Assembly: GCA_951812955.1 (NCBI GenBank)
Contig: OX638340.1
Span: 3,584,001 to 3,648,000 of the forward strand
Direction: 5' to 3'
Source of the DNA: an uncultured Gemmatimonadota bacterium
Lineage (GTDB): Bacteria; JAAXHH01
DNA: 64,000 nucleotides
Below the pieces are notes generated by a model. That model was given only the letters and a program-made list of their open reading frames with translations. It was not told the origin of the DNA and searched no databases. A program made the position numbers and the translations under genes. Below, one piece after another: positions 33,969 through 53,395 of this stretch; position 1 is the stretch's first letter; every line of letters begins with the position of its first letter.

Positions 33969-34394
33969 ATGGCGAGAGTCCGAAAGTCAACTGCAATTGA
34001 ACGATTGCAGAGGTTGGTTGATGAGGCTTCAGAGCTGGATATGGAGGATGATAGCTCTCAGGAAGTTCAAAAATGGATACAGGACGTTTATACCGCTTTT
34101 ATCAACATATTCGGTGAGGATAGTTCTCAGTTTTCACGACTTCCGCAAAGTCACAAAACAACCCCAAGTGGGGTTCGTGAATACCTGAGATCAATGGTTT
34201 CCTGCGTCGCGTCTAGTCTCGATGAGATCAAGTACTTTCGGGAGGATGAAACAGAAACTGTGAAACAACCCTCAGAACAGGGTGACTTAAAAGCACCAGA
34301 TAAGGATTGTTACGACCAGGGATCGGCGACAAAAAAGTCTTTGTCGTTCATGGTCACGACGAGGCCGTCCTGCAGGCGGTTGCGAGATTTCTAG
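33969..34394 (+). CDS. Hypothetical acidic protein (possibly the N-terminal part of a frameshifted TIR-like gene)
   Basis: AAGGAG 33955-33960, ATG 33969. Lower-GC island. Its 3' end overlaps the next ORF by 88 nt, and an A6 run at 34323-34328 separates the two frames. Confidence 0.35.
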   Translation: MARVRKSTAIERLQRLVDEASELDMEDDSSQEVQKWIQDVYTAFINIFGEDSSQFSRLPQSHKTTPSGVREYLRSMVSCVASSLDEIKYFREDETETVKQPSEQGDLKAPDKDCYDQGSATKKSLSFMVTTRPSCRRLRDF

Positions 34395-34768
34395 AAAAGC
34401 TGAAACTCGAACCAGTAATCCTGCACGAACAGGCGAATCAAGGCCGCACGATCATAGAGAAATTTGAGGATCATTCGGATGCGAGTTTTGCCGTGGTTCT
34501 GCTGACACCTGACGACATAGGCGCGGCCGTTACGGATAAGGCCGATCTACGGCACCGAGCTCGTCAGAACGTAATTCTCGAACTCGGATTCTTCATTGGG
34601 AAGTTGGGTCGCAACAGGGTCTGTGCTCTGAAATCGCGTTGTGTCGAAAATCCGTCGGACGTCGATGGGATGGTCTATATCAACCTCGACGAGCCAGATG
34701 CATGGAAGACCGGACTCGTGCGGGAGTTAATGGCAGCTGGTTTCGCCATCGACGCTAACTGGGTTTAG
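34307..34768 (+). CDS. TIR-like (COG4271/CAP12-type) nucleotide-binding domain protein
   Basis: KKVFVVHGHDEAVLQAVARFLEKLKLEPVIL...FAVVLLTPDDIG...RARQNVILELGFFIGKLGRNRV matches the TIR-like COG4271 pattern. Only TTG 34307 is available as a start in this frame. Confidence 0.5.
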   Translation: MLRPGIGDKKVFVVHGHDEAVLQAVARFLEKLKLEPVILHEQANQGRTIIEKFEDHSDASFAVVLLTPDDIGAAVTDKADLRHRARQNVILELGFFIGKLGRNRVCALKSRCVENPSDVDGMVYINLDEPDAWKTGLVRELMAAGFAIDANWV

Positions 34769-34773
34769 CAGCC

Positions 34774-35079
34774 ATGAACGCACAGTTGTCGATTTCCAAA
34801 ACCGAATTGTCAGCCTATTGTAAAAATCATGGCATCCGACGATTAGCAATTTTCGGATCGGTGCTCCGGCCAGATTTTGGCCCGGAGAGCGATATCGACG
34901 TACTGGTCGAGTTCGCACCGAGTCACACTCCCGGTCTGCTGGGCATGGCCGGATTGGAGATTGAACTATCCGAATTGTTTGGCGGTCGGAAGGTGGACCT
35001 GCGGACTCCTGAGGAATTGAGTCGTTATTTTCGACAGAAGGTCATTGACACGGCAGAAGTTCTATATGTGCAGGGATGA
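34774..35079 (+). CDS. mntA: MntA-type nucleotidyltransferase (antitoxin of HepT/MNT toxin-antitoxin pairs)
   Basis: Minimal nucleotidyltransferase motif FGSVLRPDFGPESDIDVLVEF. 101 aa. Confidence 0.7.
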   Translation: MNAQLSISKTELSAYCKNHGIRRLAIFGSVLRPDFGPESDIDVLVEFAPSHTPGLLGMAGLEIELSELFGGRKVDLRTPEELSRYFRQKVIDTAEVLYVQG

Positions 35080-35182
35080 CGAAATCCCATTACAGCACAT
35101 GTTGGACGCCGAGCGGGAGGCAGTGTGTTTTTCACGAGGACACAGTTGGTTGCAGCCGCTAAGTCAAGCCTACCATATCGCG
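35066..35182 (+). pseudogene. hepT: HepT (DUF86) toxin remnant, truncated after 38 codons
   Basis: MCRDDEIPLQHMLDAEREAVCFSRGHSW... matches the HepT N-terminal block, then TAG at 35180-35182. Overlaps the mntA 3' end by 14 nt, as in intact MNT-HepT pairs. Confidence 0.45.
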
Positions 35183-35550
35183 CGTGAATAGTAATCCAGG
35201 ATGGTGGTGTCCGAAGTCACGAGCAGGCATTTGTTCAATTTGGCCGTGGCCACGATCGTGCGGTCGACAGGATCCCGGTGATCCCAGTCCAGTTCGAGAT
35301 TCCCAATCCATGTCCGCACGTCCACTGGACGTACTTCAATCCGTTCGGTCCGTTCCAGATTTTATGCGAAGTCCTGAATGGACAGGGGCAACACAAGATC
35401 GGCCTTTTTCACCCTAACGCCGATCTCCCAGATCGAGATCGAACTGATGCACACGCGGTCGGCTTGTGTAATCGTCTGGTCGTCGATTTTGGACAGGCGT
35501 TCGGGATCCAGTGTCCAGAAAACAAGCGCGGACGTATCCAGTACGACCAT
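35161..35550 (-). pseudogene. VapC-like PIN-domain toxin interrupted by an in-frame TAA
   Basis: MVVLDTSALV...SIWEIGVRVKK...DFA, then TAA (35362-35364), then the same frame continues ...DHRDPVDRTIVATAKLNKCLLVTSDTTILDYYSRAIW* carrying the remaining PIN acidic residues. Confidence 0.6.
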
Positions 35551-35780
35551 TACGTTTCATCCCATTCGTCGATTGTCGGTGTGTCGATGTCTCCATGATA
35601 GACGATCTTTCCCCGCAGTCCATCGAAGATCCTGTCAACCGATTGCTTTGGCTTTATGGGTTTTACACTGAGAACTGGACTCCGGTTATGCGTTACGATC
35701 AGATCCTCGCCCGATTCCTCGATTTCTCGAAATACCCGAAGCATATTGGCCTTCAGCTTGCTCTTCGATTTGAACAGCAT
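35550..35780 (-). CDS. Phd/YefM-family antitoxin
   Basis: KLKANMLRVFREIEESGEDLIVTHNRSPVLSVKP matches the Phd/YefM N-terminal fold pattern. The stop shares a nucleotide with the vapC start (TGATG). Confidence 0.55.
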   Translation of the reverse strand: MLFKSKSKLKANMLRVFREIEESGEDLIVTHNRSPVLSVKPIKPKQSVDRIFDGLRGKIVYHGDIDTPTIDEWDET

Positions 35781-35950
35781 ATGGACTCCAGTCTGTTTAG
35801 TAAAAGACTATGGGCATGACCCTGGTTATATTCGAAGGATTTCCTATGAACCGTCAAGGATTTATCTCATTCTCGGCAACTTAGAAGTCGGATTCCGTGC
35901 GACTATTCCGACTGTATAGGTATGATGTTCAATTCAATGTGTAAGACAGG

Positions 35951-35979
35951 TTGACAATCGACGTCCCGACGTCTAATAT
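35951..35979 (+). promoter_or_regulatory. Near-consensus sigma70-type promoter (TTGACA-N17-TAATAT) with tandem GACGTC palindromes in the spacer; predicted leaderless start for the MTase gene
   Basis: TTGACA 35951-35956, spacer atcGACGTCccGACGTC, TAATAT 35974-35979, ATG 35986. No RBS. Confidence 0.4.
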
Positions 35980-35985
35980 TAAAAT

Positions 35986-37122
35986 ATGGCCACTAACACC
36001 GAAAGATACGCTCCTGGTCGAGTACGAGATGCGATAATCCGGGTGATGAGACTAACGACAGAAGGTTTGTCTGCTAAACAGATCGCAGCGAGAGTTGCAA
36101 AGATAGAGGGCCACATGCCTGAGTCCTCGATCAGGTCTTATCTTCGTCTGAACACTCCAGAGACATTTGTTCGTGAAAGGAGGGGGGTATACCGCCTTAA
36201 GGTAGATCATGACAGCAGTCTGCAACGAACGATGTTCAGGAGTCCACCTTGGCAGGAACCCTTCAAGTTTGGATCGGCTACATTGTTTCATAGTGAATGT
36301 TTGGATTGGCTGGACGCAAGAGATGACCAATCAATCCACGCGATAGTTACCGATCCACCTTACGGTCTGCAGGAATACACAGCGAAAGAGCAGACGAAAC
36401 TCCGAAATAGGAAGGGGGGGATCTGGAGGATTCCTCCTGCATTTGATGGCCACGTTCGTTCGCCGTTACCAAGATTCACTACTTTAACCGATGAACAAAA
36501 ACTTTATCTTCGGGAGTTTTTCTATATCTGGTCTCGTCTACTGATCCCCAAGTTGGTACCTGGCGCCAACGTGGTCGTTGCCTCCAATCCACTACTCTCC
36601 CACATTGTCGCCGGCGCTATAGCGGATTCGGGGCTTGAAAGACGCGGCGACATCGTCAGGCTTGTTATGACTATGCGTGGCGGTGATCGGCCAAAAGCGG
36701 CACATGATGAATTCAAGGACGTCAGTGTGCTCCCCAGATCAATGTGGGAGCCATGGCTGATATTCCGTAGGCCTGTGGAGGGAAGAGTACAGGACAACCT
36801 CAGAAAATGGAAAACGGGAGGGTTTCGACGGCCGACTGGACTCAAGCCATTCGGAGATGTTATTCAATCTTCCCCGACCAGAAAAAATGAGAAGGCGATA
36901 GCACCTCACCCCAGCCTTAAGCCACAATCCTTCTTACGACGCCTCGTGAGGGGTGTTCTTCCACTAGGTGAGGGTATAGTTGTCGATCCCTTTGCCGGCG
37001 CTGGCTCTACTCTCGCGGCCGCTGAAGCAGTTGGGTACGAGTCAATCGGAATAGAAAAGGATTCTCTGTACTTCAATATGGCCAAGGAAGCACTACAGCC
37101 ACTAGCCGAGCTCGAAGTGTAG
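35986..37122 (+). CDS. Beta-class DNA methyltransferase (N6A/N4C type) with N-terminal HTH domain
   Basis: Motif IV TDPPYG upstream of motif I VVDPFAGAGST (beta-class order). N-terminal ~80 aa HTH-like (LSAKQIAARVAKIEGHMPESSIRSYL). Lower-GC island. Confidence 0.8.
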   Translation: MATNTERYAPGRVRDAIIRVMRLTTEGLSAKQIAARVAKIEGHMPESSIRSYLRLNTPETFVRERRGVYRLKVDHDSSLQRTMFRSPPWQEPFKFGSATLFHSECLDWLDARDDQSIHAIVTDPPYGLQEYTAKEQTKLRNRKGGIWRIPPAFDGHVRSPLPRFTTLTDEQKLYLREFFYIWSRLLIPKLVPGANVVVASNPLLSHIVAGAIADSGLERRGDIVRLVMTMRGGDRPKAAHDEFKDVSVLPRSMWEPWLIFRRPVEGRVQDNLRKWKTGGFRRPTGLKPFGDVIQSSPTRKNEKAIAPHPSLKPQSFLRRLVRGVLPLGEGIVVDPFAGAGSTLAAAEAVGYESIGIEKDSLYFNMAKEALQPLAELEV

Positions 37123-41747: not shown

Positions 41748-42734
41748 ATGCACGTCGGTACCCAGCAGTTTAGCACGGCGGACGAAGACCTGGAGTATCT
41801 CGCCCGCCACGGCGTCTTCAACAAGAACGAGAATAACATTACCTTCCACAGGGAATATGGATGGGACGTGGAGGAACTGGCGGCCAAGAAGGAGAAGTGC
41901 GCCCGGTTCGGCATCAACATGGAGATGGTGGCCCTGCCTATCGCCCAGTTCAACGTCGACGGCGGCCAGGTGCCCAATTACATGCTGGGGAAATACGAGG
42001 AAGGCGACAAGGAAATCGAACTGGTGTGCAACATGGTGCGCCAGGCCTCGGAAGCGGGCATCCCCGCGATCAAATACTACCTTTGCGAGATGGAGAACCA
42101 GCGCACCGAGAGCGATCCGCCCGGACGCGGAGGTTCGATCTACAGCACCTGGGACCTGGAGAAGGCGAAGGACCGGCCGCCGCGGTACGACGAACCCGTA
42201 ACGGCCGAGATGAATTGGGCCCGCATAACCTACTTCCTTGAACGGGTGATCCCCGTGGCGACCGAGTGCAAAGTCCGCATGGCCTGCCATCCCTGCGATC
42301 CGTGGCTGCCGCCCGGCTATCGCTGCGTGGACCGCGTGCTCGGCGGCTTCGACGGGTTCAAGCAATTCATTGAGATCTGTCCCAGTCCGTACCACGGCAT
42401 GAATCTATGCCTGGGTTGCATGGCTGAGAGTTCGCTCGACCCGCGCAACGAGGTGCCTGACATTATTCGATACCTGGGATCGCGGAACAAGATCTTCCTC
42501 TGCCATTTCCGAAACATCGTGGGCGGGAGGAACAAGTTCCAGGAAGTCTGGCCCGACGAGGGCGTCATGAACATGCACCGCAACATGCAAGCGCTCAAAG
42601 AAGTCGGCTACGATCACATGTGCGTGCCCGATCACGCGCCTGGGCACAAGGATCCGGACAGCTACCGGCAGGCCTTCGCCTACGAGTTCGGCTATATTCA
42701 GGCGATGATCCAGGCGGTGATGGACGAGGGGTAG
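41748..42734 (+). CDS. Mannonate dehydratase (UxuA)-like xylose-isomerase-fold enzyme
   Basis: Blocks CHPCDPWLP (compare UxuA VHPDDPP), HFRN and VPDHAPGH resemble UxuA metal-binding regions. Confidence 0.55.
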   Translation: MHVGTQQFSTADEDLEYLARHGVFNKNENNITFHREYGWDVEELAAKKEKCARFGINMEMVALPIAQFNVDGGQVPNYMLGKYEEGDKEIELVCNMVRQASEAGIPAIKYYLCEMENQRTESDPPGRGGSIYSTWDLEKAKDRPPRYDEPVTAEMNWARITYFLERVIPVATECKVRMACHPCDPWLPPGYRCVDRVLGGFDGFKQFIEICPSPYHGMNLCLGCMAESSLDPRNEVPDIIRYLGSRNKIFLCHFRNIVGGRNKFQEVWPDEGVMNMHRNMQALKEVGYDHMCVPDHAPGHKDPDSYRQAFAYEFGYIQAMIQAVMDEG

Positions 42735-42813: not shown

Positions 42814-44592
42814 TCAAATCTGCCACTCGATCAGTTGCTGGTCCTGTTTAAGGCGTGCACGCTGATGCTGGGCGGCAATGAAGATGTCTTCCAACCCGGG
42901 CGTATCGACTTCGAGCCCCGGCAGGGAGTACCGCGCTTCCATGAGAAACCGGTCCTCCTGCGGCGATTGGATCCATGCGTGCCGCCACCACTCCAACATG
43001 CGGCCTCTCGCGTCAGCCATGGCGATGGAGGAGGGCAGCCGGTCGCTCTTTCTGAGGTTGATGTTGCCGCGGGCCGGCAGCAGGTTCCAGAGATCGTTGT
43101 TGCGCCAGCGCGCCCACGGAAAACAGTGGTCGATGTGCGGAGCGGTTCGAATGCGCGACGCAGACCATACGCAGGTAAGCGCGAATCCGTCATCGCGCAA
43201 CTGCTTCGCCCGTTCCAGGGCAACGCTGGTGTCGTAGCGGCTCTCGGTCCATTCGAACGGGTCGTTTGATACCGTTTCAGCCCCGCGATCCCGAACCACA
43301 GCGGCAGATTGATCGGTGGGGGTCGTCCACCGCGCGGTGTTGCGCAGGCTTGCCGAGTCATCCCAATTTGTAGTCAGTTGCCGCCATTCCCTTACGATGA
43401 CCGGCTCCAGCCAGCAGGCGAACTGACCGAGTGACTGCCATAGCAATGCGGGAATCCTGAGGCGACCGAACTGCGTCAGATATTCGCGGGAGAGAACGAT
43501 GGGCCGGGCGGTCGCCTGCGCCCTGGTATATCCTGATTCGAACAACTGCCGGTTGCCGGAAGCTGGATAGGTGATGTAGCGTACAGGCATCCGCTCGATG
43601 TTTACGCAGGCGTCGTTTATAGCATGGGTAAGGATGACGGCCCGGTCCGAATCAAACCTGGCACCCAGCCGAAGGTCGGAAGGCGAGACGTTCCCGAGAC
43701 GGTAGAACGCATCCTTTGCCCAGCCGTATCCGCCCGGTCCCGATGGGCGTTGCGGCAGACGATGATGCAGGACCAGGGGAAGGTATTGCTTCAACCAGTA
43801 CAGACCGACAGCGCCGAAGGGGATTTCTACGTAGTCGTCCGTACGATTGATGACTAACCCCGGCGCCGTTTCAGCGAGTCGTACCAGGATCCGAAGCAGC
43901 CCCAGCTTGTAGGTCGAGGACTTGTTGTCATTCACGATCACGTGGCGCAGCAGCGGCAGGCTGCCGGTGCCATCGTCCGGCATAGAGAAAACCAGCGTTT
44001 CCCAATGTATGCCGGGTCGCGTCAGGTCCGGCTGCGTCGAGTGGTTGCGCAGCGCGATGGCTCGGCGGTTGGCAAAACCGATAAGTTCCTCTGCCGAAGT
44101 GTCATGAAATCCCCGGGCGACATTTTCCGCGGCATCTCCGCCGCGTCGCAGCGTGAATACCAGCAGTCCGGATGGATTGAGCAGCTCGGAAAGGATGCGG
44201 AAGGCCCGTTCCCGGACATTCTGCGCCACGTGCATCCACACAGCGCTCAGTAGAATCAGGTCGAACCGCCGACCGAGCGCACGCAGAACCCTTAGATCCG
44301 GTAGGGCATCATCCATCCAAACCACGCCTGGGTGGGAGCGTTCCGCAGCGAGGTTCCGCAACGCGCTCGGTTCCACTGCCACGACTTCCCATCCTCTGGC
44401 CGCGAGCCAGTTGGCATCGCGTCCCGAACCGGCGCCGATGTCGCAGGCGAATCCAGGTTCTTCACGCAGGTGGGTCGGAGCCCAGTCTTCATGGACGTCT
44501 GCAGCATCGACTCCGTCATACTGGGCGAAGAGAGCATCTGAATTGAGGTCGTAGTATCTGGTGCTGTTCATGCGGATAGGCAAGACTGGCAC
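42814..44592 (-). CDS. Fusion protein: class-I SAM-methyltransferase fold plus C-terminal DUF1524/HNH-like His-Me nuclease
   Basis: Motif I FACDIGAGSGRDANWLAARGWEVVAVEPS. C-terminal HIDHCFPWARWRNNDLWNLLPARGNINLRKSDR matches the GmrSD C-terminal (DUF1524) His-Me finger pattern. 592 aa. Confidence 0.6.
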   Translation of the reverse strand: MPVLPIRMNSTRYYDLNSDALFAQYDGVDAADVHEDWAPTHLREEPGFACDIGAGSGRDANWLAARGWEVVAVEPSALRNLAAERSHPGVVWMDDALPDLRVLRALGRRFDLILLSAVWMHVAQNVRERAFRILSELLNPSGLLVFTLRRGGDAAENVARGFHDTSAEELIGFANRRAIALRNHSTQPDLTRPGIHWETLVFSMPDDGTGSLPLLRHVIVNDNKSSTYKLGLLRILVRLAETAPGLVINRTDDYVEIPFGAVGLYWLKQYLPLVLHHRLPQRPSGPGGYGWAKDAFYRLGNVSPSDLRLGARFDSDRAVILTHAINDACVNIERMPVRYITYPASGNRQLFESGYTRAQATARPIVLSREYLTQFGRLRIPALLWQSLGQFACWLEPVIVREWRQLTTNWDDSASLRNTARWTTPTDQSAAVVRDRGAETVSNDPFEWTESRYDTSVALERAKQLRDDGFALTCVWSASRIRTAPHIDHCFPWARWRNNDLWNLLPARGNINLRKSDRLPSSIAMADARGRMLEWWRHAWIQSPQEDRFLMEARYSLPGLEVDTPGLEDIFIAAQHQRARLKQDQQLIEWQI

Positions 44593-44866
44593 GGGTAGCC
44601 AGAATAGGCGTGCTTAGACAGATAAGCGTTTTCCCGCTTCATGCGGGCGGGCATTGATTCTTGCGGGTATCCTGCGCACGTACATGATAAAGGCGGGAAA
44701 ACGGTTGAATATCCCATGTCGAAGTCATTATCTATGATCATGCCATATTAGTCGGAAAACGGTAGATGTCAAGCAATCCAATGCGTCTGCTAACCGCGAC
44801 TGTCGCTTGTGTTTGCCTGCAGCGATGGCCTGACGTGTTCTGTGTACGCGCCAATCCCGACAGGAG

Positions 44867-45670
44867 ATGACTGTGATCTCAAAACGCATACTGCCCGGCG
44901 AGCGTCTCGACGACGCCTGGATGGAAGAAATACTCACGGACTTTTACAGGGACGGTTTCGCCCTTATACCGGGTGTGTTGACCCGGGATGAAATCGATGC
45001 CCTCCGCGAGGTGACGGACCGCTGCTTCAACGATCCCGTGCTGGCCGGCACTGATTACCTGAGCGGGCAGGGGGACGGATTCGTGCTCCGCAATACATTG
45101 GAACTGGACGCCGTATTCGTGGACATGCTGATTCGGGAGCCGATCCTGAGTCTGGCTGAAGCCGTCGTGGGAGAGGACTGTAAGTTCTGCGGGCAGAACG
45201 TGATCCGGAACGCGCCGGGCCAGGCCATTTCGCTGTGGCACGTGGACGACCGGGTGGAGTTCCCGTTGCCGGAAGACGTGCACCGCCACGACCCCCGCAT
45301 CCGCATGCCGGTGCAGTGGTTCACCATCCAGATGGCCCTGACAGATATCGATTCGGTGGAGGATGGTCCTACGCAGTTCGTGCCGGGCAGCCAGTATTCC
45401 GGCAGAGATCCCAACAGCCAGGAAAATCCGGAGTTCGAAGGCAGAGGACCGGTCTCTGCGTTATGCAAGGCGGGCGACGTCTACCTGCAGAACAACCAGT
45501 GCTGGCACCGGGGAGCGCCCGTCACATCGGATCAGATGCGCTATGTCTTCCAGTCCCAGTACGCCGCCCGTTGGGCCCACAGGCGGTTCAACGAGTATAA
45601 CCACGTACCTGTGCCGCCCACGGTTCTAAGCCGGGCCTCGGACAGGCTGCGTGGGGTGCTGGGTGCGTGA
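44867..45670 (+). CDS. PhyH-family Fe(II)/2OG oxygenase
   Basis: WHVDD HxD motif, distal WHRG. 267 aa. Confidence 0.7.
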   Translation: MTVISKRILPGERLDDAWMEEILTDFYRDGFALIPGVLTRDEIDALREVTDRCFNDPVLAGTDYLSGQGDGFVLRNTLELDAVFVDMLIREPILSLAEAVVGEDCKFCGQNVIRNAPGQAISLWHVDDRVEFPLPEDVHRHDPRIRMPVQWFTIQMALTDIDSVEDGPTQFVPGSQYSGRDPNSQENPEFEGRGPVSALCKAGDVYLQNNQCWHRGAPVTSDQMRYVFQSQYAARWAHRRFNEYNHVPVPPTVLSRASDRLRGVLGA

Positions 45671-45760
45671 CGACATGTGCTCAGGTCGGCTTGGCTATTT
45701 AACGGGGCATCCGGCCGATTGCGCAGGCCGGTACCTGGCATGGCCTGATGTACGTCTTGA

Positions 45761-46966
45761 TTAGTGCACGATAGTATCGAACCGCGCGGGCAGCGCCACC
45801 TCGAGCAGCTCGAGGTCGTCGGAGCGGTCCGTGAGGGACGTTTTCGTGTGCGGCGGAATCACGTAGGCGTCTCCCGCCTCCAGCCGGTGTGCGCCCTGGT
45901 CATCCCCGTTCAGGGTCACCTCGCCTTCCATGACGAAGGTGAAGAGGATATCGCCAGTGTGGCTCGTGACCTGTTCCGCGCCTGACGGGCTTCCCTGTTC
46001 GCCTCCTCCGCCGGGGCCTGCGTATTCGCCGCTGATCGTGCCTCCTTGCGCGGAGCCATTCGAGCCGCTGTTCGCACGTGCGACCTGCACCGATGCTACG
46101 CCGCCCGTCGCCTCGCCGATCCCTGTTTCCCGGGCTTCGAATCCCGCTAGTCTCCAGGGTTTCCAGACCGCGTCTTTGAGCTGATGGCGGCAGAATGTCT
46201 GACCGCCGAAGACACGATCGGGGTTCAGCACTCCTGTCGGCAACTCGACCTCGTGGTCGATGGTGGTCACGTGGTCCGCGGGCACGCCGATTTCGATCAC
46301 CTGCAGGTTGTCGGAAGATTCGAGCACGCGATGCCGGATTTCCGGGGGTTGGATCACGCAGTCCCCCGCCTTGAGCATGAAAGGTGGCCCCTGGTCCTCG
46401 TAGACGAGCTTCACCTCGCCACGGTAACAGAAGATCAACTGGAATCCCACCGTATGATAGTGTACAACGTCGGGAACGGGACCGGCGTCGGGGATCCGGA
46501 TGTGGGAAGCAATGATGCTCCCACCCAGGCGGCCGGGCACCAGGTCGCGGTAGTGCATGCCGGCACGGCCGATTACCCAGGGCGTGTTGTCCTTCAGCCT
46601 CCGCACGAGGAAGGCGTGCTCCGTCGGCGGGATTTCCAGCGGCGGATCGGCCCGCACGATCTCGACCCGTGTGCCGTTCGGCGCGGTGAGTTCGGTCCGG
46701 CCGCCGGCCAGAACCGCCGGATCTCGACACAGGATTCGTATTGTGCCCGGCGGTTCGGACGCGCCCTGCTCCAGCCGGATGGTGAGCCCGTGGCCGGAAA
46801 GTACGGAAACTGACGGGTAGTCGGCGGGGTAGATCTTGTCCATACGGAAACCCAGGGTCTTCATGAAGAAGGCCAGGTCCGCGGACAAGTCCGAGGTCGG
46901 CAGCCGGATCTCGGCGCCCTGGATATTGTCCTCGCGGTTGGTCTGCTTGTCGTCATGCAATTGCAT
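45761..46966 (-). CDS. Bicupin protein
   Basis: Two cupin barrels. Start at MQLHDD with GGGAG RBS; the 47005 call would overlap the upstream gene. Confidence 0.55.
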   Translation of the reverse strand: MQLHDDKQTNREDNIQGAEIRLPTSDLSADLAFFMKTLGFRMDKIYPADYPSVSVLSGHGLTIRLEQGASEPPGTIRILCRDPAVLAGGRTELTAPNGTRVEIVRADPPLEIPPTEHAFLVRRLKDNTPWVIGRAGMHYRDLVPGRLGGSIIASHIRIPDAGPVPDVVHYHTVGFQLIFCYRGEVKLVYEDQGPPFMLKAGDCVIQPPEIRHRVLESSDNLQVIEIGVPADHVTTIDHEVELPTGVLNPDRVFGGQTFCRHQLKDAVWKPWRLAGFEARETGIGEATGGVASVQVARANSGSNGSAQGGTISGEYAGPGGGGEQGSPSGAEQVTSHTGDILFTFVMEGEVTLNGDDQGAHRLEAGDAYVIPPHTKTSLTDRSDDLELLEVALPARFDTIVH

Positions 46967-46979
46967 ATCGCCAGCTCCC

Positions 46980-48101
46980 TTATCCTTCGAAACGATACTT
47001 CTCAACGACGTCCATGTTCAGCTCCGTACCCAGTCCGGGTTTCACGGGGAGCCGGAAATAGCCGCTTTCCACGACCGGCGGATCGGTCAGCAGGTCGTCG
47101 CGCCAGGGCGCGTCCCATTTTTCGTCCACGAACTCCAGCACCAGTGCGTTTGGGATATTGGCCATGACGTGAAGGCTCGCCGTCGTGGACACGGCGCTGT
47201 TCGGATTATGGGGCGAGACCTGCATGTAGTAGCTTTCCGCCATGGCGGCGATCTTCTTGGTCTCCATGATGCCGCCCGTGCGCACAACGTCGGGCATGAT
47301 CATGTCCACCGCCTGGGCGGCGATCAGGTCCCGGAAGCCGAAGCGCGTATACCGTCGTTCGCCCACGCAAACGGGCACGTTGACGGACGCGGTCACCCGG
47401 GCCAGGGCGTCGATGTTCTCCGGGTGGACCGGCTCCTCGTAGAACAGCAGGCCGATTTCCTCGAGCCGGTTGCCGATGCGGATCGCGGCGCTCGTGGTGT
47501 ACCGGCATCCCACGTCGGTACAGAGGTCCACCCCGTCGCCCACGGCCTCGCGGCACCGGCGCATGTGTTCCAGGGCCATCTTCTCTTCCTTCAGCGTGAC
47601 AGAGCGAGGCGAGTCAATGCGTTCCCCTTTGACCAGCGGATCCGAGGGGAAGTACGCCTTGATGGCGGTAACGCCCTTGGCGGCCAGTTCTGCGCACTCC
47701 TCCGGGTCGGAGGCATGGCTGTAGAACCGAATGCGGTTGCGGCACGGTCCGCCGATGAGATTGTAGATGGGCTGACCGGTGACCTTGCCCACGATGTCCC
47801 AGAGGGCGATCTCGATGCCGCTGATCGCCGCGATGACCGTACCAGTCTGCCCGATCTGCTCCAGGGCGTAGTACATACGGTGGTACAGGTACTCTATGTG
47901 GAACGGATCCTCGCCGATGATGAGCTTGCTCAGTTCGTCCACGGACTGTGCGATGATGGTGCCGCCCGGCCAGTTCGTCGCGTCCCCCAGGCCCACGACC
48001 CCCTCGTCCGTGTAGACCTGCACGAAGACCCACGGCGAGCCGATGTCCGTCGATTTGCGCCAGGACTCCACCAGGTGCACTTTCACATCGGTGATTTTCA
48101 T
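46980..48101 (-). CDS. Enolase-superfamily dehydratase (mandelate racemase/muconate lactonizing enzyme family; mannonate/galactonate dehydratase-like)
   Basis: N-terminal capping domain MKITDVKVHLV..., metal-ligand blocks in the barrel (DVGCRY...EEP...). 373 aa. Confidence 0.8.
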   Translation of the reverse strand: MKITDVKVHLVESWRKSTDIGSPWVFVQVYTDEGVVGLGDATNWPGGTIIAQSVDELSKLIIGEDPFHIEYLYHRMYYALEQIGQTGTVIAAISGIEIALWDIVGKVTGQPIYNLIGGPCRNRIRFYSHASDPEECAELAAKGVTAIKAYFPSDPLVKGERIDSPRSVTLKEEKMALEHMRRCREAVGDGVDLCTDVGCRYTTSAAIRIGNRLEEIGLLFYEEPVHPENIDALARVTASVNVPVCVGERRYTRFGFRDLIAAQAVDMIMPDVVRTGGIMETKKIAAMAESYYMQVSPHNPNSAVSTTASLHVMANIPNALVLEFVDEKWDAPWRDDLLTDPPVVESGYFRLPVKPGLGTELNMDVVEKYRFEG

Positions 48102-51169: not shown

Positions 51170-51533
51170 TTCGTGATGTCCCTTTGCCGAGTCTGACGTC
51201 GCGGACAATACAGATGCTAAAGGTGTAATGTACAAGGCGTTCTGATTATCGATGTCAGGAGTACGAATGCTCCTGCAATGGTACAGAGGCTACCGGTACC
51301 GTGTCAAGCAGGAATGAACCGTCTTTTTTGAAGGTGGTTTCGGCATGGAAGCCGCTGGTCTTGACAGCGTCCGGCACGCCGCTTAAGTTGCCTTCTGACG
51401 GTCATCGAAATGCGATCATCCAGGTCATTCAGTTCATTCCGACCAGCTGAACAGCGTGCGCAATTCGGGCAGAAACTTCCGGTCCGTCGATTTCCCGTTA
51501 CCAATTTCGATTCTCAGTTTAAAGGTATTCTAT

Positions 51534-52283
51534 ATGTCCCACGCGCAACCCCTGAATGCCCAGCAGATCGCCTACTTCAAGCTAAACGGCTACCTGGTCC
51601 TGAAGAACGTTTTCGACGAGGGAACCCTGGAGGCATGGCGGCGGCAGATCTGGCGGGCGCTCGATGGCTGCCTCGAAGATCCCGCGACCTGGCCCAGGGA
51701 AACGAGCGGTCTAGACGGGTACGATTACGATCCGCCCGAATCGGCCCTTGTGCACCATCCACAGATGATGGCGATCATCGACCAGCTCAGCGGGGGAACT
51801 TTCGTCGCTGGCGACGGCATTCCGATCATTCGGTGGCCCGATCCAGGAAAGTCCTGGGAAATGCCCCAAACGGGACATATCGATGCCTACGGGGGACGCT
51901 GGCTGCCCTTCATGATCGGCGCGACGACCTACCTGTACGACGTGGAACCCGGCGGCGGAGCCTTGATCTACTGGCCGGGAAGCCACCACGCCGCTCACCG
52001 GTACTTTCTCGAGCATCCCTCGCATGTCGACGGCAGCTTCCTGGAGATCGAGGGGTTTTCGTGGGACGTGTTCTGCGACAACCCGGCCACCGGCGGCCAG
52101 GAGTTTACCGCGAAGGCCGGCGACGTGGTGCTCTGGCATGCCTACCTGACCCACAACGGATCGGAAAATACCAGTCATTCGCCGCGCTTCGCCCTCTTCG
52201 CACGCTGGAACCATGAGAAACACCTGGAGCAGTCCTTCAGATACGAGATCCCCGAGGATCTGTGGAAGTATTGGGCGGTGTGA
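51534..52283 (+). CDS. PhyH-family oxygenase
   Basis: Start MSHAQPLNAQQIAYFKLNGYLVL. HIDAYG HxD motif, distal WHAYLTHNGS. Confidence 0.7.
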   Translation: MSHAQPLNAQQIAYFKLNGYLVLKNVFDEGTLEAWRRQIWRALDGCLEDPATWPRETSGLDGYDYDPPESALVHHPQMMAIIDQLSGGTFVAGDGIPIIRWPDPGKSWEMPQTGHIDAYGGRWLPFMIGATTYLYDVEPGGGALIYWPGSHHAAHRYFLEHPSHVDGSFLEIEGFSWDVFCDNPATGGQEFTAKAGDVVLWHAYLTHNGSENTSHSPRFALFARWNHEKHLEQSFRYEIPEDLWKYWAV

Positions 52284-52452
52284 GAGAGAACGCCTAAACT
52301 GCGGTTGTTTGATAGAAAACCGTCGTCTCGTGTAATGAGGCATACCTTAGAGCTGAAGATCCGTACAGAGATTCCCGGTTCAAGCCGGTTCGCTGTCTCG
52401 CCGTCGACAATATGATTTCGAGAACAGTCGCTGTTCCCCGACTATACTGTCA

Positions 52453-52863
52453 ATGAGCTCAGTACCGGAACCGGATCAAGAGGAAGATCTTATGGGGAAA
52501 ATCATGAATGATTCCGCGAGCGTATCCGTTTTCGAGGTCGTTGGCAACGCTCTTTGCGTTGCTTCCGACGACGGCCAGAGAGTACACGACCGACTTTCGA
52601 CTGCATTGAAGGATAGCCGCCATGTGAATCTTTCTTTTCGCAACGTGACATCGCTTACTTCGGCTTTTCTGAACACCGCGGTCGGCCAATTGTATGGAAC
52701 CTTCAGCGAAGATCATATACGTACGCAGTTGAACATCGAAGAAATGTCCCTGGATGATCTGGTGTTACTCGAGCGTGTGGTCGACACAGCGAAGCAATAC
52801 TTCAAAGACCCTCAAAGATTCGAACAAGCGCTTCGTGAGGAAATGGATGACTATGACGACTGA
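52453..52863 (+). CDS. STAS-like (DUF4325-like) small protein
   Basis: VNLSFRNVTSLTSAFLNTAVGQLYG resembles the STAS-like DUF4325 core. Low-GC islet. Its 3' end overlaps the next gene by 17 nt. Confidence 0.45.
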   Translation: MSSVPEPDQEEDLMGKIMNDSASVSVFEVVGNALCVASDDGQRVHDRLSTALKDSRHVNLSFRNVTSLTSAFLNTAVGQLYGTFSEDHIRTQLNIEEMSLDDLVLLERVVDTAKQYFKDPQRFEQALREEMDDYDD

Positions 52864-53395
52864 TTCCAAGGCGCTCGCGGTGAATGAACACGAATTCAGT
52901 CGTAGAGATAGGTTGTTTCTTGATACTAATATCTGGTTGTATCTATTCGGTCCGCATAAACCCAAGGCAAGAGCGATCGACACGTATTCAAGTGTGCTTA
53001 AGCGGATTCTGGATGCGGGTAGCAGAATCTATATCGACGTTCTGATCGTTTCAGAGTTCATCAACGCATGCGCCAGGTTGAATTGGCATCTTGCAACAAA
53101 CAGGAAAATTGGTTTCAAAGCATTTCGAAATTCGTCATCTTTCAAATCAGTCGCCAGGTCGGTGTCAAGCGACGCCGCGCGGGTTATGTCCCACTGCTTG
53201 CGTGTGGAAAGTGGATTCTCGGACATGGCCGCGACCGAATTGCTCAATGAATTTGTCACCGGAAAATGCGACTTCAACGATCAAGTTATCATAAGACTCT
53301 GTAAAAAAGAAGAACTAACCCTGATTACACACGACGCCGATTTCAAAGGCGCGGGGATTCCGATTTTGACAGCGAACCATCGTCTTCTGAACTAA
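52847..53395 (+). CDS. PIN-domain nuclease
   Basis: LFLDTNIWLY...SEF...FNDQ...ITHDADF gives the four PIN acidic positions. Intact, 182 aa. Confidence 0.6.
   Translation: MTMTTDSKALAVNEHEFSRRDRLFLDTNIWLYLFGPHKPKARAIDTYSSVLKRILDAGSRIYIDVLIVSEFINACARLNWHLATNRKIGFKAFRNSSSFKSVARSVSSDAARVMSHCLRVESGFSDMAATELLNEFVTGKCDFNDQVIIRLCKKEELTLITHDADFKGAGIPILTANHRLLN

Follow-up and report, generated by a model that had tools for sequence, protein, structure and literature searches.

A fusion of a small-molecule-type methyltransferase fold, a winged-helix-like domain and a Cas9-type HNH nuclease in an uncultured Gemmatimonadota bacterium, a possible defence-island endonuclease

The fusion gene and its domains

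The window analysed here, a 64,000-nucleotide stretch of contig OX638340.1 (positions 3,584,001 to 3,648,000; assembly GCA_951812955.1) from an uncultured Gemmatimonadota bacterium, encodes a protein that joins a class-I S-adenosylmethionine (SAM)-dependent methyltransferase domain, a family-specific middle domain and an HNH nuclease module in a single chain. An earlier description of the window made from its letters without database searches (the sequence-only reading) had called an open reading frame (ORF) at this position, and the ORF is real: it occupies 42814..44592 on the minus strand and encodes 592 aa from a GTG start, stop codon included. Both motif strings quoted in that reading were found, CDIGAGSGRD...VVAVEPS...FDLILLSAVWMHV and, at aa 486-518, HIDHCFPWARWRNNDLWNLLPARGNINLRKSDR. 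The GTG at 44592 is a mechanical ORF start that lies 7 codons upstream of a conserved ATG at 44571 (Met8, MNST...). Conservation was assessed in alignment A1, which holds 35 full-length family members (34 homologues and the window protein). The Met8 position is the start in most of the 34 homologues, a few of which have longer N-terminal extensions; because the alignment begins there, Met8 is the likely start and the protein is probably 585 aa long. The features of the gene are as follows.

42814..44571, minus strand: likely coding sequence of the methyltransferase/winged-helix-like/HNH fusion, 585 aa plus stop (start from the homologue alignment, ATG read from the sequence)
43984..44565, minus strand: class-I SAM-dependent methyltransferase domain of the small-molecule type, aa ~10-203 (Pfam, AlphaFold2 (AF2) and Foldseek)
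43354..43980, minus strand: family-specific middle domain with a winged helix, aa ~205-413, a presumed DNA binder (AF2 predicted local distance difference test score (pLDDT) ~90)
43228..43353, minus strand: variable low-complexity linker, aa ~414-455 (gapped columns in A1; pLDDT <50 in both AF2 models)
42817..43227, minus strand: HNH nuclease module, aa ~456-592, with a beta-beta-alpha-metal core and a conserved C-terminal helical extension ending ...HQRARLKQDQQLxEW
43033..43137, minus strand: HNH catalytic core H486-I-D488-H489-CFPW...W502-N503...N512-L-R-K515-S-D517, containing HIDHCFPWARWRNNDLWNLLPARGNINLRKSDR (aa 486-518)

The N-terminal methyltransferase domain is of the small-molecule type

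Pfam assigned aa 43-179 to Methyltransf_23 (E=1e-11, 45.3 bits against a cut-off of 27), and Methyltransf_12, Methyltransf_11 and Methyltransf_25 likewise scored above their cut-offs over these residues. AF2 modelled aa 10-200 with a pLDDT mostly >90, and a Foldseek search of the domain against the PDB returned 891 matches at E<=0.001. The top 50 were all small-molecule methyltransferases, among them RdmB/DnrK, phosphoethanolamine N-methyltransferase, NodS, UbiG, toxoflavin and bacillithiol methyltransferases, and TehB. The N-terminal class-I SAM fold of TehB-like or small-molecule type proposed in the sequence-only reading is thus upheld by profile, model and structural comparison alike. The PDB sequence matches of the domain are TehB-like proteins (2i6g, 2xva and 4dq0), and the TehB structures 2xvm, 4dq0 and 2i6g are among its sequence or structure matches. 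The domain has its fold and SAM motifs in common with TehB-, TPMT- and UbiG-like methyltransferases; unlike these enzymes, it is fused to DNA-directed domains and stays below the TehB family cut-offs (19.8 vs 20.4 bits for PF03848, 27.4 vs 218 for NF008405 and 15.8 vs 219.5 for TIGR00477). The TPMT profile was likewise below its Pfam cut-off, and NCBIfam gave only sub-threshold matches to small-molecule methylases.

Motif I (D51-I-G-A-G-S-G) and E74, at the acidic end of beta-2, are invariant among the 35 members, as are W119 and H121 in the segment following beta-4, which reads LSAVWMH. Since the SAM motifs and these two pocket residues do not vary, the N-terminal domain most likely binds SAM in a conserved pocket. 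Four further residues beyond the SAM site, Y14, Y25, H34 and W37, are also invariant.

The catalytic motif IV of DNA methylases, (D/N/S)PP(Y/F/W/H) or PCQ, is absent from all 35 members, and the window protein has no Pfam match to N6_N4_Mtase, MethyltransfD12 or DNA_methylase. On the missing catalytic motifs and the small-molecule structural neighbours, a conventional DNA methylase was rejected. The mad2 methylase model of the MADS system (PADLOC PDLC04134) aligned positions 290-401 of its 492 with aa 44-153 at E=2.5e-10, which, judged by the aligned range, is a match to the generic SAM-binding core and not full-length membership. Methyltransferase and nuclease also share one polypeptide in type IIG/IIL (MmeI-like) enzymes, in which a gamma-class N6-adenine DNA methylase with an NPPY motif is combined with a target-recognition domain and a PD-(D/E)XK nuclease; these features are all absent from the fusion protein.

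These results bear directly on a single-chain modify-and-cut enzyme, in which the methyltransferase would mark host DNA and the HNH module cut unmarked DNA, or in which the methyltransferase would modify invading DNA for cleavage by a type IV partner. Such an enzyme would account for the presence of both activities in one chain with the active-site motifs of both invariant, for the weak and local mad2 match and for the type IV restriction enzyme that often adjoins the gene (see below). A precedent has been proposed in the Ambrosia system, in which a type IV HNH protein might act on the marks made by its partner methylase (10.1101/2025.09.30.679545). We nevertheless consider this reading quite improbable: besides lacking the DNA-methylase motifs, Pfam matches and structural neighbours, the protein is without the target-recognition domain typical of DNA methylases, and stand-alone relatives that lack the methyltransferase have no adjacent methylase, which would be lethal for an enzyme cutting unmodified DNA. 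A scheme of the 'protect self, cut unmodified' kind is unlikely in particular because these methylase-free relatives appear viable and the methyltransferase is not of the DNA type.

The C-terminal nuclease is an HNH_4 module resembling that of Cas9

Pfam HNH_4 (PF13395) matched aa 486-520 with E=6e-5 and 23.4 bits against a cut-off of 22; the score was 26.0 bits for the C-terminus alone and reached 37 bits in relatives. Nothing but HNH_4 was found in Pfam for the isolated C-terminus, even at E<=10. D488, H489, N503, N512, K515 and D517 are invariant among the full-length members. The catalytic residues are spaced 14 residues from H to N and 9 from N to N, equal to the spacing in the corresponding D839/H840/N854/N863 set of SpCas9. 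The Cas9 HNH domain is the best match of the nuclease by both sequence profile and structure, and relatives without the methyltransferase match Cas9 HNH models in PADLOC. In a first, full-length AF2 model the HNH domain had a pLDDT <50 and the predicted template modelling score (pTM) was 0.52, with interdomain geometry that was not confident. Modelling of aa 200-592 on their own, from a deeper alignment, gave the HNH domain at pLDDT 89; the beta-beta-alpha-metal fold with the D-H...N...N set that defines HNH_4 membership is present in the predicted structure. The likeness to Cas9 is at the domain level only: unlike Cas9, the fusion protein has no RuvC, REC or PAM-interacting domain, no CRISPR array and no guide RNA context.

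The sequence-only reading had assigned the C-terminal ~90 aa to DUF1524, the nuclease half of GmrSD-type enzymes. A His-Me finger nuclease is indeed fused at the C-terminus, but the module is ~135 aa long (aa ~456-592) and the DUF1524 assignment did not hold. DUF1524 (PF07510) gave no match at E<=1 for the whole protein or at E<=10 for the isolated C-terminus, although the HMMER filters drop most very weak matches, so that a remote relation at the superfamily level is possible. A published classification of His-Me finger nucleases assigns HNH_4 to group 1 but DUF1524 to group 3 (PMC5714182). The window protein matched none of the GmrSD, BrxU or SspE models of PADLOC, and the DUF262 ParB-like NTPase is absent both from the protein (by Pfam) and from the adjacent window genes. 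GmrSD, BrxU and SspE have in common with the fusion protein a C-terminal His-Me finger nuclease, a motif of the D-H...N...N style and a multidomain, defence-type build; they combine DUF262 with DUF1524, whereas the fusion protein matches neither profile, has no NTPase domain and belongs to the other His-Me group. We thus rejected the DUF1524/GmrSD assignment in favour of HNH_4. Because the nuclease is HNH_4 and not DUF1524, the further suggestion that a SAM-binding fold has replaced DUF262 is framed wrongly; the core of the protein is a winged-helix-like domain joined to HNH_4.

The middle domain is a new candidate reader of DNA

A middle region of ~250 aa had been left unassigned in the sequence-only reading. 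No described family matched it, yet it consists of a folded domain of ~210 aa and a linker of ~40 aa. When the thirds of the protein were searched separately, as had been suggested, the N-terminal third matched the Methyltransf_23 group and the C-terminal third HNH_4, while the middle gave no Pfam match even at E<=10. R216, K224, Y228, K229, W266, Q281, W385 and W403 are invariant in alignment A4, which comprises 28 sequences with identity to the query down to 33%. The linker is longer in the clade of the window protein than in gammaproteobacterial homologues. The modelled fold resembles, at the fold level only, the phosphorothioate-sensing SBD of ScoMcrA and the winged helices of ORC/Cdc6. 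We regard the middle domain as a new winged-helix-containing domain, modelled with good confidence, that presumably binds DNA; its SBD-like topology is suggestive.

The relation to the SBD was pursued by several routes. PF26340 (DNA-SBD_ScoMcrA) gave no match to the middle domain at E<=10, and a family profile of the domain searched against PDB sequences returned nothing, the SBD included. An hhalign comparison of the family alignment with an SBD alignment, seeded from the SBD of a neighbouring gene at locus L005 and extended to the 13 proteins found by homologue search, yielded a probability of 0.1%, with the SBD profile being shallow. The hallmarks of the SBD are the sulfur-cavity residues H116-(R/K)117 and Y164-P165, of which Pro165 is essential (PMC6224610). 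A motif comparison made by hand, without structural superposition, identified no counterpart of the H-(R/K) pair or of the essential proline; the conserved motifs nearest to them are Y228-K229 and a G-(L/Y)-G-(F/W) loop. Assignment of the middle domain as a bona fide SBD is therefore unsupported by the Pfam, hhalign and PDB profile searches, and the resemblance in fold remains.

A phosphorothioate-directed enzyme would place a divergent SBD on phosphorothioate DNA, have the methyltransferase S-methylate or otherwise use the phosphorothioate, and let the HNH module cut nearby. Known substrates of TehB/TPMT-like methyltransferases are soft S, Se and Te nucleophiles, and the weak similarity of the N-terminal domain to TehB and TPMT is in keeping with such chemistry. 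One genome, a Pseudomonadales metagenome-assembled genome (MAG), adds a genetic link: at L005 9683-11352 (the same as L022 11692-13361) the 3' end of the fusion gene overlaps the beginning of a ScoMcrA-like SBD+HNH_2 gene, and an SspD homologue (E=5.7e-81) comes next. This sspD gene is apparently an orphan with no SspA, SspB or SspC nearby, and the setting is an island rich in toxin-antitoxin genes. An ssp or dnd gene lies near the fusion gene at only this 1 of the 80 genome loci surveyed (see below), which, together with the failed SBD searches and the lack of identifiable H-(R/K) and Pro165 counterparts, makes the phosphorothioate reading very improbable.

The closest known systems combine a reader domain with an HNH nuclease. 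Winged-helix-HNH fusions such as SruGXI are N6-methyladenine-dependent type IV enzymes (PMC11037411), and ScoMcrA and SprMcrA are type IV enzymes of the SBD-HNH kind (PMC6224610). Like the winged-helix-HNH enzymes, the window gene stands alone without an adjacent DNA methylase. It differs from both groups in that no relation of its presumed reader domain to the DpnI-type winged helix or the SBD was detectable by sequence, and in that it carries HNH_4 of the Cas9 type where McrA-like enzymes carry a zinc-finger HNH or HNH_2. It also has the additional N-terminal methyltransferase of small-molecule type, for which no precedent was found in either family. By its domain composition, the protein would be a reader-HNH nuclease whose reader domain is new and whose SAM methyltransferase, of the small-molecule type, is without precedent, with its functions beyond the domains themselves being predicted.

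The fusion belongs to a large and patchily distributed family

A word-indexed homologue search gave 2589 matches, the best 120 of which were mostly full-length proteins of the same architecture with 56-92% identity. Where these 120 are named, they are labelled 'class I SAM-dependent methyltransferase' or given similar generic methyltransferase names, and no homologue carried a housekeeping annotation. A scan with one genome per species found relatives encoded in at least 573 species genomes, so that the survey of homologous architectures suggested in the sequence-only reading shows the fusion to be recurrent. The distribution is patchy over many bacterial phyla. Among the matches listed, most are from marine Gammaproteobacteria (Halieaceae, Marinobacter, Pseudohongiella and Alcanivorax), with Latescibacterota and Gemmatimonadota MAGs also represented; the window gene is 91-92% identical to genes on the 'MAG: bacterium' chromosomes OZ252103 and OY762445 and 84-86% to those of Latescibacterota MAGs. 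From their isolate names, we suspect that many of the closest genomes (unclassified, Latescibacterota and Gemmatimonadota MAGs) come from sponge metagenomes, in which case the window would probably also stem from an organism associated with sponges.

When the middle domain by itself was searched exhaustively with HMMER, 493 representatives at 50% identity were retrieved. Most of them are proteins of 560-590 aa that have this domain near residue 195. Several, exemplified by P0211, P0246 and P0265, are complete proteins of 367-464 aa that contain only the middle domain and HNH_4; the P0246 gene is preceded by a gene-free gap of 426 bp. Relatives occur on 20 plasmid records, including those of Roseomonas, Sphingobium, Azospirillum and Pseudoalteromonas, and plasmids of Nostoc, Tolypothrix and Leptolyngbya carry distant versions without the methyltransferase that are annotated 'HNH endonuclease domain-containing protein'. 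Judged by these architectures, the middle domain plus HNH_4 is the conserved core of the family and the methyltransferase an accessory that is usual but not universal. None of 50,697 phage records held a match, on which ground a phage origin or a homing endonuclease was rejected. PADLOC v2 has no model for the fusion protein.

With the middle domain as query, the word-indexed search yielded little besides fragments and split genes, and split or truncated versions of the fusion gene are frequent in metagenomes. At some loci, additional N- or C-terminal fragments lie within a few kb of an intact copy (L016 169-1137 and 4646-5371; L045 12471-12650 and 13959-14186). Such copies point to local duplication and decay. 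All 89 of the 89 copies fetched are intact over their best alignment.

Neighbourhoods link the family to type IV restriction

To survey the neighbourhoods, ORFs were called around 80 genome loci and the neighbouring genes clustered; 12 loci are syntenic with the window (L006-L015, L020 and L021) and 68 are not. In the syntenic loci the fusion gene is flanked by PhyH, cupin, MR_MLE, AP_endonuc_2, amidohydrolase and molybdopterin-oxidoreductase genes. Its identity across the 12 loci is 80-92%, compared with 84-99% for the flanking genes, a pattern that indicates vertical descent with slightly faster evolution. The surrounding genes (window 42814-48101, loci L006-L021) form a conserved metabolic cluster with several paralogous PhyH dioxygenase, cupin and MR_MLE genes.

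In 16 of the 68 non-syntenic loci, the fusion gene is adjoined by a type IV restriction enzyme resembling SauUSI, a characterised enzyme dependent on 5-methylcytosine or 5-hydroxymethylcytosine that carries a DUF3427 domain (PMC3141236). The neighbour is ~1040 aa long, has PLDc_2, ResIII, Helicase_C and DUF3427 domains and matches the PADLOC model mREase_IV end to end (E 1e-227 to 1e-242). Three gene orders were found: the restriction enzyme gene followed after 2-11 bp by the fusion gene, as in Marinobacter and some Halieaceae; fusion, NUDIX and restriction enzyme genes in other Halieaceae; and a divergent arrangement at one locus. Across the locus groups the restriction enzymes are 36-39% identical and the fusion proteins 48-64%, so that their linkage is either ancient or recurrent. 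The NUDIX gene, which lies between or beside the other two, matches PADLOC PDC-S07 (8e-48); its product could sanitise modified deoxynucleoside triphosphates for a modification-dependent nuclease. Cassettes of fusion, NUDIX and SauUSI-like genes were seen at L033 10001-15257, at L026, L035, L042 and L031, and at L073-L085. SauUSI is a partner and not a homologue of the fusion protein, to which it is unrelated in sequence and architecture; common to both is a stand-alone nuclease without a cognate DNA methylase. The fusion gene of the window has no adjacent SauUSI-like gene.

By raw tally, roughly half of the 68 non-syntenic loci have a defence-type gene next door. HNH_2 proteins adjoin the fusion gene in 5 loci, and other immediate neighbours include PDC-S01 (AAA_14/DUF4143), PDC-S36, PDC-S41 (a Schlafen-type helicase) and RmrA. 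The plasmid-borne copies lie in similar company: mcrC and a DUF3578 gene, both on the opposite strand 1.7-5.6 kb downstream, followed by VapBC; an adjoining dGTPase with a NERD protein nearby; HNH endonuclease genes on both sides, 0.3 kb downstream and, past a hypothetical gene, ~1.3 kb upstream; or a divergent adjacent HNH endonuclease gene with a DUF262 gene two genes further.

A stand-alone defence nuclease is the favoured reading

We favour, at a probability of about one half, the reading that the fusion protein is a stand-alone DNA endonuclease with a SAM-using accessory domain, from an uncharacterised defence-island family. This reading fits best because of the patchy distribution, the plasmid carriage, the pseudogene debris and the tight linkage to type IV restriction enzymes. 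In such an enzyme, the middle domain would bind DNA and position the HNH module to nick or cut foreign DNA. The target would be DNA with a non-host feature, recognised by a type IV-like logic, rather than unmodified sites, since the usual neighbours act in this way and relatives without the methyltransferase have no adjacent methylase. The N-terminal domain would bind SAM and either couple cleavage to SAM availability or methylate a non-canonical nucleophile, and would not serve as a conventional host-protecting DNA methylase. In Marinobacter and Halieaceae the enzyme would operate in a cassette with the SauUSI-like PLD-helicase-DUF3427 enzyme, with or without the NUDIX protein, and in the lineage of the window as a solo gene. 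Of the functions offered in the sequence-only reading, the genomic context favours a modification-sensing restriction enzyme over one that modifies and cuts.

Several observations weigh against a defence nuclease. Some half of the genes immediately beside it belong to ordinary metabolism (adh_short, glyoxalase, macro); its vertical inheritance in a metabolic setting, seen in the window and in 12 related genomes, would suit a housekeeping role just as well; the proteins share 46-92% identity across phyla, a high degree of conservation for a defence gene; and full-text literature searches found no description of this methyltransferase-HNH fusion. The first three of these observations would support a housekeeping enzyme of nucleic-acid processing or repair, for example a methyltransferase-nuclease that modifies RNA or DNA ends, for which the defence genes found elsewhere would be incidental. 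The gene is intact in its syntenic setting, and its GC content is host-like (0.609 vs 0.608 for the window), confirming the earlier observation that it lies outside the neighbouring low-GC islet. Nevertheless, its GC content at third codon positions (GC3) is 0.70, below the 0.77-0.85 of the flanking genes, and no conserved housekeeping operon partner was found in the loci surveyed. The patchy distribution, carriage on plasmids, pseudogene debris with fragment copies, and repeated tight linkage to a type IV restriction enzyme in different gene orders argue further against such a role, which we hold to be unlikely.

For the methyltransferase domain of a defence nuclease, a SAM-dependent regulatory or chemical role is most plausible. 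Phage SAM lyases counteract SAM-dependent defences, and phage SAM-degrading enzymes disarm restriction-modification and BREX. A SAM-sensing guard would turn this to advantage: bound SAM would keep the HNH module off, and phage SAM-degrading enzymes would release the nuclease to cause abortive infection or cleave phage DNA. The perfectly conserved SAM-binding motifs in a fold that is not of the DNA-methylase type, the location of the genes in defence islands and the dispensability of the methyltransferase in some relatives, as expected of a regulatory add-on, are consistent with a guard. Its coupling to the nuclease finds no sign in the full-length model, with its low pTM and uncertain interdomain geometry, and the invariance of Y14, Y25, H34, W37, W119 and H121 suggests that the domain has a genuine substrate pocket and is not a sensor alone; we judge the guard improbable. 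There is a small chance that the domain acts in one of two ways, either as a guard of the SAM pool that unleashes HNH upon SAM depletion by phage, or by methylating a soft nucleophile on invading DNA, such as a phosphorothioate sulfur presented by the SBD-like domain. Either would constitute a mechanistically new class of defence in which a single protein cooperates with enzymes of the SauUSI type.

If the fusion protein is a defence nuclease, the family would be a widespread addition to the anti-phage repertoire, present in at least 573 species and on plasmids, that is at present hidden under the label 'class I SAM-dependent methyltransferase'. It is unusual for a SAM enzyme of the small-molecule type to be joined to a DNA reader and an HNH domain of the Cas9 type, and this union could reveal SAM-pool-coupled immunity or a new DNA chemistry, and the middle domain is a new candidate reader of DNA or of DNA modification. 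The tight and repeatedly rearranged linkage to SauUSI-like enzymes and NUDIX proteins suggests a multi-gene cassette in hosts, Marinobacter and Haliea, that are culturable.

Flanking genes and other features of the window

The fusion gene stands alone on its strand between a convergent neighbour on one side and a divergent one on the other. The 274-bp spacer on the divergent side holds one sigma-70-like site, against 1.1 expected by chance in the consensus scan, so that the site is a candidate only; the promoter and terminator scan gave counts not above chance. No tRNA gene that would mark an integration site was found in the window.

41748-42734, plus strand: AP_endonuc_2/UxuA-type gene, 328 aa, convergent with the fusion gene
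44867-45670, plus strand: PhyH dioxygenase gene, divergent from the fusion gene across the 274-bp spacer
44745..44772, minus strand: sigma-70-like promoter candidate TTGACA-16-TAATAT, 10/12 consensus matches, ~175 nt upstream of the ATG

A foreign-looking islet of low GC content (~0.49-0.51) occupies window positions 34307-37122, 5.7 kb from the fusion gene, and contains the DNA methylase nearest to that gene in the window.

34307-34768: protein with a CAP12/Pycsar-type TIR effector domain (PF10137, 4e-40)
34774-35079: minimal Polbeta-type nucleotidyltransferase
35986-37122: orphan N6_N4 DNA methylase

A second low-GC stretch (~0.52-0.54) lies at 51410-53395 among genes for PhyH-type dioxygenases and includes two overlapping genes, which may be an inserted toxin-antitoxin or defence pair.

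52453-52863: DUF4325 STAS-like protein, overlapping the PIN-domain protein at 52754-53395

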